From NCBI GenBank assembly GCA_964016885.1, contig OZ024741.1:80848001-80912000 (forward strand): a stretch of DNA of 64,000 nt, written 5' to 3'. The notes below the pieces were generated by a model, which ran no database searches, was not told where the DNA came from, and was given only the letters and a program-made list of their open reading frames with translations. This stretch comes from Eledone cirrhosa. Its lineage: Eukaryota. Each line of letters starts with the position of its first letter. Within the stretch, counting starts at the first letter, position 1. Positions 940 through 33,289 of the stretch are shown piece by piece. The position numbers were made by a program, and so were the translations under genes.

Positions 940-3900
940 ACTTATGCTTATTCATTTTTGGGGCCCTTTCTGCCCGTGTGTTTGTTTGTTTATGTGTGTC
1001 CGTATACAGCGTGGTGATAATGCCACACAAGGGCCAAGTGGGATGGCGGATCCACAGATGGCTATGTAAACATACATTCGCCAATCCTCGATAAGAGTGT
1101 TTAAATATCGAACATAAACAGTTCGAATAACGGTGAAATGGAGACTAGAACGTCATGTGACAGACTCTCACCCAACAGGTGCCCCCTGGCTCAGCAGCAG
1201 GAACCTGACTGTCAACCAAATACTGCTGATGTTGGAGGAAGAAGAAGAAGGAAAGGGGCCAGAACCAACTGGACGAAAGAATTGAATAGAACTGTTATGC
1301 AATGCTACCTGAAAAGTAACCCCAAGGAGAGGGGCTACAGGAGACGGATGCATAACATCTGGAACGAGATTGGTTTATTTAAATTAGATGAACAAAAATT
1401 GGCCGGGCAGGCTCGGGTAATAAGAACTAATGGGTGGATAAGCGAGCTGGAACTGGAGGAACTGAGCAGAGAGAATGGCTTGGAGATGGCGGGTGTAGTA
1501 TGCCAGACAAGCGAGCCGGCGGGAAATGAAGGTGAGGAGGTCCTGAGAACGGAGGAACCACCCGAAGCAGACAATGATCTGAATACTGAGATAAATAATA
1601 CCTGGAACAGAGATACGGCCACTGAGGAGATGAATGCTGACGGGCTAGGACAAGATTCGGTTGACATCCTAAATTTAGTGGTAGATGAGTTGAACAATGA
1701 TAGTGGGAGACCTATGAACCTAAGATTTGTAGACAGGAAAAAGTTAAAAGAAACAACAGCTAAGGTAAACAAAGTCATCCCATACCTTGAGGCGAGGAGT
1801 CTTCACCAGTGCAACAATATCCTCAAAGCAACAGCAAATACGGTGAGGAAACTACTTGGTATAAAAGCGAGAGGAAACAACAGACAAGAAAGAGCAGAGC
1901 CGTGGTGGAAGAAGCGACTGAGTGGGCAAATCGGGGAAATGAGAAATGACATAGGAAAGCTTGAGTCACTACTGAATGGGACACTAAAAAACATAGGCAC
2001 TAAAAATAGACTGGAAATAAAATACAAAACTAGGAGTAAAAAGCTAAATATTATCATAGAGGAATTGAAGCAACGCATTGTAGCAAAGAGTGCCAAAATC
2101 AGGCGATACGAGAACAGAGTCAGTCAGTATAAACAGAACCGCATGTTCGACAACAACCAGAAGATGCTGTTTGGACAGCTTGAGGGGAAAGAAAGAGGCA
2201 ACGACTTGATCCCTGGGGCGGAACAAGCTAAAACATTCTGGAAAGGAATATGGGAGCAGGATGTTAGACACAATGCCCAGGCAGGGTGGATTGAGACAGT
2301 ACAGAGGGAGATCGGTGAGCAGGCACAGCAACAGACTGATTTGAGTATCACAGTTGAAACTCTTAAGGGGCAAGCCAAAAAACTAACCAACTGGAAATCA
2401 CCAGGCCCAGATGGTGTGCAGGGGTATTGGATTAAACATTTAACATCCCTCCACCCGAAGCTGACGGCCATGTTCAATGACTGCTTGGTGTCGGGTGAGG
2501 TGCCAGAGTGGTTGACAAAAGGTACCACAGTTCTGATAATGAAAGACCGAATCAAGGGTAATGATGTTACCAACTATAGACCTATCACATGTCTGCCCGT
2601 AATGTGGAAACTGTTGACGAGCATTGTGTCTGAGGAAATCTACCATCACCTCCACACAAACAACTTGTTGCCGGACGAACAGAAAGGATGCCGAAAGAAG
2701 TCACGTGGTACAAAAGACCAGTTGCTTATTGATAAGATGGTAATGGGGAATTGCAGGAGGAGACACACTGATCTTGCCATGGGATGGATAGACTACAGAA
2801 AGGCATTTGACATGGTGCCTCATTCCTGGATCACCAAAAGCCTGGAGATCTTCAGGGTGGCAGATAACATCAGACAGTTGCTGGGCAGGAGTATGGGGTC
2901 CTGGGAGACAGAGTTGACATCAACTGGAGTATCCTTGGGAAGCGTGAAGATCAAGAGAGGTATCTTCCAGGGAGATAGCCTGTCCCCTCTGTTGTTTGTC
3001 CTTGCCCTGATGCCCTTGACCATTATGCTGCGAAAAGTGAGAGCAGGATACAAGTTGGGAAGGGGAGAGCTTACCATCAATCACCTCCTCTTCATGGACG
3101 ATCTTAAGCTCTTCGGGAAAAGTGAGAAGGAGTTGGATGTGCTTGTTGACACTGTCCGTATTTTCAGCAGTGATATATGTATGCAGTTTGGTATTGGTAA
3201 ATGTGGAGTCATTGTGATGAGGAGGGGTAGGTTGAGCAGAAGTAACGGGATCCAGATACCAACAGGTGAGATGATAAAGGAAATTGACTCTGAGGAAGGA
3301 TACAAGTATTTGGGCGTTCTGGAGGCTGATGGCATAAAGAACAAAAAAAATGAAGGAATTGTTAAGAACTGAATACATTCGGAGAGTAAGGAGCGTATTG
3401 AAGTCACATCTGAACAGCAGAAATGCCATAAGCTCAGTAAATTCCCGAGCTGTGTCTATTATTAGGTACAGTGCGGGAATTCTGAGATGGAATGTTGCTG
3501 AACAAAAAGAAATGGATAGGAAGACTAGGAAGCTATTGACTATCTACAACATGTTCCACAAGAGGAGTGATGTCGATAGACTCTACCTAAGGAGATCTGA
3601 GGGTGGAAGAGGTCTTATCAGCATAGAGGACTGTGTTCAGATGGAGAAAAACAACCTATACAAATACGTGACCTATAGTAAGGAGCCAATGCTCAGAGCT
3701 GTACTGAAGGAGGGGACAGTAGGCCAGGGGATACCCAAGGAGGAAATAACATCAAGGAGGAAGAGCAGCCTTAAGGGAAAATCCCTTCATAGTACCTTCT
3801 TTGAGAAAACTGAATTTAGAGATCCACAGACATGGAACTGGTTGAGAAGAGGAGACCTCAAAAAGGCTACAGAAGGAATGCTAATGGCTGCGCAGGAGCA

Positions 3901-4606
3901 GGCCCTCAAAACGAAGTGGTTGAAGCACCATATCTACAAGGAGGAGGCTAGCCCACTGTGCAGGATCTGTGGAGAGAGAGAGGAGACTGTGGCTCACATT
4001 GTGTCCGAGTGTAAACACCTAGCCCAGACCCACTATAAGGGCTGGAGACACGATGTGATGGGCAGGGTGATCCACTGGCACCTGTGCAAAGTAAACAATC
4101 TACCACATTCTGAGAAATGGTATGAGCATAGGCCAGAGGCGGTGATGGAGAACAGTCAGGTGAAGGTGCTGTGGGATTTTAGGATACAGACGGACAAAAA
4201 ACTGGAACACAATAGACCTGACCTGGTGGTTGTGGACAAAGAAAAAAGATCGTGCCTGATTGTGGATGTGGCCTGCCCGTTCGACACGAGAGTGCAAGAG
4301 AAGGAGAGGGAGAAAATTAACCGATACCAGGACCTAAAGTGGGAGGTGAAAAGGATTTGGAACTGCCATGAAGTCAAAGTGATCCCGATTGTCATAGGCG
4401 CACTGGGGACTATCTCCAAAGGTTTCCAGGGATGGTTAAAGAAAATCGGCCCCTTCACGCTTTTTGGAACGCTTCAAAAGGCATGCTTGCTTGGAACGGC
4501 AAGAACCCTCCGATACGTCCTGAATATCTGAGGCTGCAGGTAGTGGCTTGATATTCAATCCAACGGACTTTCCAGTTAACCAACATCAATGACTGAGATT
4601 CAAGGA
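940..4606 (+). mobile_element. R4/Dong-like non-LTR retrotransposon copy A, near full length (5' boundary uncertain)
   Basis: Single long ORF with RT, CCHC and restriction-like endonuclease; short 3' UTR; ends in (TAA)n, the known Dong target. Confidence 0.9.
1138..4531 (+). CDS. RT-RLE polyprotein split by one frameshift near 3345 (ORFs 1138-3372 and 3350-4531)
   Basis: Motifs KSPGPDG, YRPITCL, QGDSLSPLLF, FMDDLKLF; CRICGEREETVAHIVSEC; RHD, RPDLVV..D..EK..RY. A8 run here versus A7 in the in-frame copy at ~11340. Confidence 0.9.
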
Positions 4607-4656
4607 ATAACAATAACAATAATAATAATAATAATAATAATAATAATAATAATAAT
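4607..4656. repeat. (TAA)n microsatellite shared as tail by copy A and copy B
   Basis: Seen directly. Confidence 0.95.
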
Positions 4657-32200: not shown

Positions 32201-33219
32201 ATGGACTACAAATTTCAGAAGTCCCATTTACTGCTGAAATGGAAAACACAGAAAAAGCAAAGCAGGTAAAAGTAACTGCAAAGAAAGAACTGCTACAGAA
32301 ACTGGCTAAGAAATGGCAAGAAAAGCCTCTGTATGGAAAATACCCAGAGCGAGCTAACAATCCTGATGTTGACAAAACTTTAACCCATCAGTGGTTGGCA
32401 TCCTCTGGACTGAAATCGGAGACTGAAGGACTGATTATCTCCGCACAAGATCAGTGTCTGCCAACAAAAAATTACCAAGCCAACATAATAAAAAATGGGT
32501 GCAGCCCATTATGCCGTGTATGCAAAAAACAACCAGAGACCATTGACCATATAATTTCAATGTGCAGTCCTATAGCTCCAACCGAATACCTAAACAGGCA
32601 TGACAGAGCTGCACAATACATACATTGGATAATGTGTAAGCATTTTGACCTGCCCCATCAAAAGAATTGGTGGGAGCATCAACCACTTCCCATACTTGAA
32701 AAAGATCACATCTCAATCTTGTGGAACTTTAGCATCCAAACAGACCGAAAAATAGATGCAAATAGACCTGATATAATATTGAAGGACTTTCAAAGGAGGG
32801 TATGCCTGCTAATTGATATGTCTGTTCCAATAGACAAGAATGTATCTATAAAAACATTTGAAAAATTGAGCAAGTATAAGGACCTGGAGATAGAAATTGG
32901 AAAAATGTGGAAATTGAGAACTAAAACAATACCAGTGGTTGTAGGCGCTCTGGGAATGATACCTAAGGGGTCTAACGACTACTTATCGCAAATCCCAGGA
33001 AACCCGCGTATAGGAGAAATACAAAAGATAGTACTAATGGGAACTGCCCATATACTAAGGAAGATCCTGTCAATATAAGTACATCACAAGTCTAAACACT
33101 AAGGATGCATGTGTGAATATGTGTGTTCTTTCTTGAACATGGCGGACCTTGTTGTCTCTTGAGGTCACTGGTTGTGACTTGGTGATAACTCGTATAAACA
33201 TAAAGCAAGATAAATGCAA
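29270..33219 (+). mobile_element. R4/Dong-like copy E, a second diverged family, near full length
   Basis: RT-RLE ORF, 3' UTR, (TAA)n tail 33220-33246. Confidence 0.9.
29429..33078 (+). CDS. RT-RLE polyprotein of copy E, frameshifted near 30130 (ORFs 29429-30181 and 30295-33078)
   Basis: YRPITCL, QGDSLSPLLF, FYMDDLKLF, CRVCKKQPETIDHIISMC, RHD, RPDII..D..EKLSKY. Confidence 0.88.
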
Positions 33220-33289
33220 ATAATAATAATAATAATAATAATAATAAAGAGTAGGAACGAGGTATCAGTATATCACCACTATGTTTGTT

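Follow-up and report, generated by a model that had tools for sequence, protein, structure and literature searches.

A 32-kb chain of R4/Dong-type and Tx1-like retrotransposons on (TAA)n/(ATT)n tracts in Eledone cirrhosa: a probable microsatellite-seeded insertion hotspot

Retrotransposons of the array

The stretch of DNA considered here is a 64-kb window of the genome of Eledone cirrhosa (contig OZ024741.1, positions 80,848,001 to 80,912,000), eukaryotic in character and rich in microsatellites; all the evidence on the locus comes from this one window. The interval 940-33247 is occupied by a chain of retrotransposons of two groups: four R4/Dong-type copies (D1-D4), characterized by a Myb-like domain, a reverse transcriptase (RT) and a restriction-like endonuclease (RLE), and four Tx1-like copies (T1-T4), characterized by a first open reading frame (ORF1) with a CCHC motif, an apurinic/apyrimidinic-type endonuclease (APE) and an RT. 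These counts, first proposed in a sequence-only reading of the window, hold in self-BLAST, Pfam and tblastn analyses, and the eight copies fill 30,751 of the 32,308 bp of the interval (95.2%). According to the same analyses, the chain starts with D1(+), (AAT)13, T1(-), an AAT tract, D2(+), (AAT)5, two pieces of a short interspersed nuclear element (SINE) in (-) and (+) orientation, T2(+), (ATT)8 and T3(+), and continues, after a compound tract (ATT)7(AGT)n T (ACT)n(AAT)4, with T4(-), (AAT)17, D3(+) with its AAC/AAT tail, a repeat designated X', one more SINE piece, D4(+) and (AAT)9.

D1 (about 940-4617, + strand) contains an ORF at 1138-4531 encoding an N-terminal Myb-like domain, RT, CCHC and RLE, with one frameshift near 3340-3370. 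D2 (10703-12588, +) belongs to the D1 family (92.8% identity) and is truncated at its 5' end; D3 (27994-28180, +), a further member of this family (88.2% and 94.8% identity to D1/D2), has been reduced to a 3' stub of 187 bp, followed by the tail AAT (AAC)12 (AAT)28 at 28181-28305; AAC units are present in the D1 tail as well. D4 (about 29191-33218, +; 5' boundary uncertain) represents a second R4/Dong lineage, its ORF (29429-33078; RT, CCHC, RLE) being, like that of D1, a single one broken by one frameshift, and its (AAT)9 tail (33219-33247) ends the array. D1-D3 thus form one family (88-95%), from which D4 is distant, with 35-42% amino-acid identity to D1. A short motif is common to 1040-1070 and 29288-29320, its distance upstream of the start codons of D1 and D4 being about 70-140 nt; the proximal 5' untranslated regions (UTRs) of the two copies as such show no similarity (z ~0).

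Pfam recognizes RVT_1 and no Exo_endo_phos in D1, D2 and D4, D3 being too short to score. The top PDB sequence matches of the D proteins are R2 proteins, and an RPD...D...K nuclease motif, which aligns with the RLE region of R2, is present in all three D proteins, although the Pfam REase models gave sub-threshold matches only for D1 and none for D4. The C-terminal CCHC is visible in the translations; a strict motif pattern gave no match to it. The N-terminal domain of D1 is predicted to fold into four helices (predicted local distance difference test, pLDDT, 82), and the top rows of a VIA-align comparison of this model are mostly Myb/SANT/trihelix structures (best Z 6.2, which is modest, root-mean-square deviation 2.2, 62 aligned); the model has no Foldseek match at E<=0.001, and Pfam found nothing significant in this region. 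With a Z of this size, D1 probably carries, at its N-terminus, a Myb/SANT-like domain without zinc fingers. The predicted architecture of the D copies, with the N-terminal domain modelled for D1, matches that described for R4/Dong elements, i.e., a Myb/SANT-like domain at the N-terminus, RT and RLE in a single ORF (PMC7998251).

As to the Tx1-like copies, T1 (4657-10679, - strand) is full-length, its ORF1 containing a CCHC knuckle and its ORF2 the APE, RT and zf-RVT domains, with one in-frame stop at 7418-7420. T2 (about 12838-18464, +) is 5'-truncated and carries several frameshifts and stops, its ORF2 being 78-88% identical to that of T1. T3 (18489-24194, +) is full-length but mosaic, with a deletion of about 300 bp and a SINE insert at about 20360-20544 flanked by an 18-bp duplication. 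In T4 (24325-27940, -) the ends, ORF1 and APE are intact and most of the RT is deleted, with the join near 24733-24740; its ORF2 is about 70-77% identical to that of T1. The mosaic nature of T3 is evident from its comparison with T1: ORF2 and the 3' UTR are 91-99% identical, the 5' UTR and ORF1 only 49-62%, with the switch near 20775 in T3 (8410 in T1). The T3 5' UTR is closest to that of T4 (z 15.6), which amounts to a swap of the 5' module.

In the ORF2 of the T copies Pfam recognizes Exo_endo_phos, RVT_1 and zf-RVT, and the best sequence and fold matches of the endonuclease are L1 endonucleases (E 1e-16), so that the proposed division into an RLE group and an APE group, supported on the D side by the RPD...D...K motif, stands. 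The ORF1 of T1, T2 and T3 contains CX2CX4HX4C, and its atlas neighbours belong to the zf-CCHC and ZCCHC3-RBD clusters (scores 0.90-0.93); Pfam did not recognize the RNA-binding region of ORF1. An ORF1 with a CCHC knuckle and an RNA-binding domain is typical of Tx1, unlike vertebrate L1; this predicted architecture would also be compatible with other L1-group lineages, and the supported label is "Tx1-like, L1 group".

The RT tree was built from eight sequences of the window, including two Tx1-like copies lying outside the array (T5 and T6), and 36 of 351 matches; D3, T4 and one more Tx1-like fragment (T7) were excluded for missing RT. It places the D copies apart from the T copies, with D1/D2 and D4 as two lineages within one group, and T1-T3 apart from T5/T6 (Shimodaira-Hasegawa-like approximate likelihood ratio test, SH-aLRT, 95 and 96). 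The clade names themselves could not be anchored by the tree, the 351 matches containing no named R4/Dong or Tx1 reference. Among named sequences, the one closest to the Tx1-like RT comes from Argonauta hians (68% identity).

Divergence amounts to 5-12% within the D family, 12-30% between the T subfamilies and about 60% at the amino-acid level between D1 and D4. The eight copies were inserted independently of one another, represent at least five families and are not products of duplication, because their families and 5' truncation points differ and in no case was a flank duplicated together with a copy.

Tracts, junctions and polarity

All eight 3' ends run into a tract, which reads TAA on the sense strand of the D copies (4/4) and ATT on the sense strand of the T copies, and both of these earlier observations hold for all copies. 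Within the interval nine tracts of at least four units are present, each touching an element end, compared with four in the other 30,750 bp; the chance that a random end lies next to a tract of the right polarity is about 0.0005 per end. On the 5' side, five of the eight copies likewise border on a tract with the polarity expected, and none borders on one of the wrong polarity. The 5' junctions of T1, T3 and T4 have the same phase, ATT|G, which means that all intact ATT-type Tx1 copies of the locus (3/3) are flanked by ATT on both sides. Among the D copies, TAA precedes two of the four 5' ends, both belonging to truncated copies (D2 and D3); these junctions are TAA| with 1-2 nt of microhomology, and the truncation points are different. 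For the Dong element of Bombyx mori the 5' junction, as given in a passage on primers, is (TAA)n|G (PMC3774820).

The copies had been described as mostly directly adjacent. Four of the seven junctions are indeed made of pure tract; of the other three, one is a compound ATT/AGT/ACT/AAT palindrome of 130 bp, one is filled by SINE pieces (234 bp) and one by about 885 bp of other sequence. The (AAT)13 tract at 4618-4656 is common to D1, for which it is TAA in sense, and T1, for which it is ATT in sense, in a tail-to-tail arrangement. T1 and D2 lie head-to-head, with their 5' ends around (AAT)4 ACT (AAT)3 at 10680-10702, and so do T4 and D3 around (AAT)17 at 27941-27993, both tracts being target-derived. 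The (AAT)5 at 12589-12603 is common to the tails of D2 and of the SINE, whose two pieces (12604-12775, -, and 12776-12837, +) are joined back to back with a 5-bp overlap. The only head-to-tail junction, T2>T3, is formed by (ATT)8 at 18465-18488, and T3 and T4 meet tail-to-tail at the compound palindrome (ATT)7 (AGT)n T (ACT)n (AAT)4 at 24195-24324, the AGT/ACT core of which does not occur in the tails of T1 and T2.

Read on the + strand, the tracts are AAT from 4618 to 12603, ATT from 18465 to 24215 and AAT again from 24312 to 33245. Because of the two flips the array consists of three blocks and not of one tract, so the claim that both groups share one (TAA)n target does not hold literally, and growth from a single uniform tract would need an inversion or a palindromic founder in addition. 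The flips are most simply explained by a palindromic compound founder microsatellite or by separate seeds, though an inversion of about 12776-24240 would fit as well. The orientation of the Tx1-like copies turns with the tract: T1 and T4 are on the - strand in the AAT(+) blocks, T2 and T3 on the + strand in the ATT(+) block, and the latter two therefore provide a useful internal control of the polarity rule. Anyway, the polarity counts as only two independent facts at the level of lineages, not as eight, since a constant polarity within a family is expected of any element that uses target-primed reverse transcription (TPRT) with a fixed target or tail. Because each lineage has a fixed polarity, the opposite polarity of the two is a one-in-two outcome, i.e., one bit.

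Microsatellite targeting and rival explanations

The data support targeting of the microsatellite by both groups, beyond the mere carrying of tails, as had been claimed for this locus. The tails by themselves would be weak evidence, because a SINE with an encoded ATT end is dispersed in the window. However, the head-to-head tracts at 10680-10702 and 27941-27993 cannot be tails, nor can the AGT/ACT core at the T3/T4 junction, and the ATT|G and TAA| junctions add tracts on the 5' side of three T and two D copies. Outside the array there is an internal replicate, T6 being located directly behind the (TATC)14 tail of T5, and T7 within a (TA)n array.

In our view the array is probably an insertion hotspot seeded by microsatellites and produced by TPRT events that recurred independently of one another. 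Short tracts of (AAT)n/(ATT)n are present at the locus in either polarity, and the pattern observed is that R4/Dong elements sit TAA-sense and an octopod Tx1-like lineage sits ATT-sense, turning where the tract turns. If both use TPRT, the observed orientations imply priming of Dong from the (TTA)n strand and of Tx1 from the (AAT)n strand, so that the first nicks would fall on opposite strands, as had been proposed. Each insertion would split the tract and leave repeats on both sides, by target duplication and by the tail, so that targets might be kept or even multiplied and later insertions could settle beside earlier ones with little harm. By analogy with other families, the choice of strand and repeat is likely to be mainly protein-encoded, by loops of the APE in one group and by the Myb-like domain together with the RLE in the other, and base pairing between the primer and the 3' end of the RNA may assist it. 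The earlier idea that each new tail is the target of the next insertion agrees only with T2>T3 and with the tract common to D1 and T1; elsewhere the tracts are either regenerated on both sides or pre-existing, and, T2>T3 being the sole head-to-tail junction, the growth of the array is better understood as renewal of the target on both sides of insertions.

Several observations weigh against this reading. Three of the eight 5' ends (D1, D4 and T2) have no clear tract: the 5' boundary of D1 is uncertain and a TAA tract is absent at about 940, the 5' side of D4 has only about two TAA units (29181-29186), and T2 is joined at its 5' end to the end of a SINE. The two polarity flips, at about 12775 (the SINE-SINE join with its 5-bp overlap) and at 24243 (the microsatellite palindrome), also have to be accommodated. 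The SINE is dispersed, two of its copies having ordinary duplications of 14-18 bp, which demonstrates that ATT tails can be element-encoded here. X' follows a TAA tract on the + strand and would break the polarity rule if it were a Tx1 5' end; it resembles the 5' UTRs of Tx1 only weakly, though not to a nil extent (z 1.2-2.1, at most 2.8 with local shuffles). Finally, the hotspot reading is drawn from one locus only.

Among the alternatives, the one that survives best, and which we regard as possible though doubtful, is that the polarity is set by annealing of RNA to the primer: both endonucleases would nick AT-rich repeats loosely on either strand, and reverse transcription would start only at nicks with a 3' end able to pair with the (UAA)n or (AUU)n terminus of the RNA, which would produce the same array. 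It agrees with the fact that T1-T4 enter the tract without poly(A), though AATAAA is located about 8 nt upstream, and with the SINE that has an encoded ATT end and a tract in common with D2. Moreover, SART1 can start at internal repeat-like sequences of the 3' UTR that may anneal to the target, and added AGG raised its accurate initiation from 36% to 76% (PMC7265360). However, the endonuclease was found to be the primary determinant in TRAS1/SART1 (PMC7265360), and the ATT-type and TATC-type copies of the window differ at 13 fixed APE positions, several of them in N-terminal loops; this comparison of four copies with two is confounded with ancestry and provides a lead only. By analogy with TRAS1/SART1, an endonuclease-led choice of strand seems preferable to us.

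We find it rather unlikely that a uniform (AAT)n array was later rearranged, either by inversion of about 12776-24240 or by nesting of the D1-T1-D2-SINE block in the Asn-codon-rich ORF1 of T2, though this would rescue the model of one tract. Re-inverting the block would put all the Tx1-like copies on the - strand and make all the tracts AAT(+), each of the two flips is an inverted junction that shows short microhomology, and T2 starts in an AAC/AAT-rich stretch. Yet the SINE-SINE join is accounted for by its own 5-bp overlap, further AAT/ATT palindromes exist at 28677-28700 and 53153-53173, the repeat X is not detectably the 5' end of T2, and around the block only an A-rich 8-mer is duplicated.

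It is very improbable that the Tx1-like copies do not target the microsatellite at all and, carrying encoded ATT tails, piled up passively in a tolerant region rich in transposable elements (TEs) where only Dong targets TAA. An encoded ATT end does exist in the dispersed SINE, the 5' tract of T3 could be the tail of T2, and TE hotspots of Octopus vulgaris reach 76-94 kb per 100 kb (PMC13282606); however, T1 and T4 carry a 5' ATT that no tail can supply, in the same phase as in T3, the element ends meet the tracts to the base, and no element is located inside the ORF2 of another. Segmental duplication, tandem amplification or an assembly artefact (a fold-back chimera) is scarcely credible and was rejected on divergence, since, despite several long palindromes elsewhere in the window and a T3/T4 junction that is a fold-back at the microsatellite level, neighbouring copies belong to different families, none of the copies has a flank duplicated along with it, and T3 and T4, with an identity of about 58-76% over ORF2 and the 3' end, have diverged too far.

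The hotspot model has well-described precedents. Targeting of (TAA)n by Dong elements (PMC3812793, PMC7998251, PMC3774820), in insects, molluscs and cnidarians (PMC7998251), and of microsatellites by Tx1 families, namely Kibi at (TC)n, Koshi at (TTC)n and crocodilian Tx1 at (TTCC/TTTC)n (PMC4494074), had been taken, in general terms, as established in the sequence-only reading and is indeed published; a target preference was defined in the latter work as more than 20% of family flanks, and the molecular basis of microsatellite targeting has been described as not well understood (PMC3812793). The D copies resemble Dong/R4 elements (B. mori Dong, DongAg, DongBg, ostracod Dong1/2) in the single ORF, the Myb/SANT-like domain, RT, RLE and TAA on the sense strand, the difference being that two distant lineages are present at one locus, interleaved with APE elements. 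Kibi, Koshi and the crocodilian Tx1 are likewise two-ORF APE elements flanked by a microsatellite of fixed polarity (PMC4494074), whereas here (ATT)n is targeted, sister subfamilies being found at (TATC)n and (TA)n, and the lineage is octopod. TRAS1 and SART1 both occupy silkworm (TTAGG)n, in opposite directions, and swaps of their endonucleases alter the specificity (PMC7265360). The Dong/Tx1 pair works like this pair without being a member of it: TRAS1 and SART1 are both telomeric APE elements of the R1 clade, while here an RLE clade and an L1-type APE clade use an interstitial trinucleotide (TAA)n. Tandem TEs may arise by double insertion into a duplicated target, as in R1 tandems (McGurk and Barbash, 2018; PMC5932611), where the target is also kept at the junctions and differing 5' truncations mark independent events; the array differs from them by its mixed clades, its head-to-head and tail-to-tail junctions and no later satellite amplification. 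Both groups are listed as recently active in O. vulgaris, Dong-R4 with 1129 insertions from 5 families and L1-Tx1 with 421 from 13 (PMC13282606). General background is given in PMC4640811, PMC3747384, PMC8967140, PMC4758252 and PMC1919474.

Every component behaviour is therefore published, no new chemistry is involved, and the array is an extension of known repeat targeting to another repeat and another pairing, not another mechanism. The part that may be new is the (ATT)n-targeting Tx1-like family using the same tracts as Dong. The literature consulted contained neither an (ATT)n-specific Tx1 nor a mixed Dong/Tx1 array, which is weak evidence, because repeat databases and the supplements of PMC4494074 fell outside it, and these supplements or the Fig. 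3 labels may list one. The significance of the locus is that the near-intact APE element T1 and the RLE elements D1 and D4, which would act on opposite strands of a single trinucleotide repeat, make up a compact system for testing whether the site and orientation of insertion are controlled by the endonuclease or by RNA annealing. The APE subfamilies with flanks of ATT, TATC and TA, which are close sisters with an identity of about 70%, can serve for this as well. The pattern may account for part of the LINE (long interspersed nuclear element) hotspots in octopus genomes. More speculatively, octopod genomes might contain many (TAA)n-seeded mixed RLE/APE arrays, in which one strand of the tracts would be used by Dong and the other by an (ATT)n-specific Tx1 lineage, itself one of several sister subfamilies that recently switched between ATT, TATC and TA, and in which 5' modules would be exchanged; we put this forward only tentatively. 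If true, the exchange would comprise the T1/T3 swap of 5' UTR and ORF1 and the repeat X common to two distant Dong lineages, and the subfamilies would provide a natural series for the study of target change in LINE endonucleases.

Repeat X, the SINE family and other features of the window

Repeat X (240-935, +), with a 329-bp tandem duplication (4-239 = 333-568), is located directly upstream of D1, and its homologue X' (28306-29129, +), which begins at a TAA|G junction, upstream of D4; the local score of the pair is 173 against 37 for shuffles. X is possibly the distal 5' UTR of D1, and it may be a long 5' module common to Dong lineages, which would account for the missing proximal tracts. In a short UTR comparison X scored z 4.7 with T4 under dinucleotide shuffles; considering its UTR-like length and context, it might yet represent a polarity exception. 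The interpretation of X and X' as Tx1 fragments was rejected: tblastn found nothing, and the best of 44 alignments with Tx1 5' regions and ORF1 reached z 2.9 on the wrong strand, true pairs scoring 4-13. X was also rejected as the missing 5' end of T2, homology and flanking duplication both being absent.

A 5' HDV-like (hepatitis delta virus-like) ribozyme has been shown for B. mori Dong and R4. Rfam gave no match to one at E<=1 in 1-34000, only three chance matches being returned. Pattern scans for such a ribozyme gave no strict match and, under relaxed settings without a shuffle control, only weak wobble-rich candidates in X', the true 5' ends being uncertain. No tRNA was found by ARAGORN.

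The SINE-like family is about 190 bp long, with a built-in ATT 3' end, and is represented at 12604-12837, 20360-20544, 29130-29190 and 40168-40360; the third of these (+ strand) is a 3' piece with a short ATT/AAT run.

Outside the array, T5 and T6 (about 42957-52880, +) are Tx1-like copies whose tails consist of (TATC)n and whose identity to T1 is about 70%. The 3' end of T5 is duplicated (48408-48599), and the 5'-truncated T6 starts right after (TATC)14, thus forming a second chain on another microsatellite. T7 (35150-35456, -), a Tx1-like 3' fragment of about 307 bp with 74-77% identity to the T4, T5 and T6 ends, has TA-rich repeats on both sides, which suggests (TA)n as a third target. The 5' region of T5 takes part in an inverted duplication (88%) around (TA)36, between 42005-42507 and 42956-43513. 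Long palindromes, often with TA runs, are located at 36939-37715, 39501-39885, 58395-58688, 59591-59754, 62331-62624 and 62782-63132; one of them is 100% identical over 294 bp, and they could be MITE-like elements (miniature inverted-repeat transposable elements) or fold-backs. Positions 60044-61837 are occupied by a 1.8-kb (ACCA)n array of about 449 copies.

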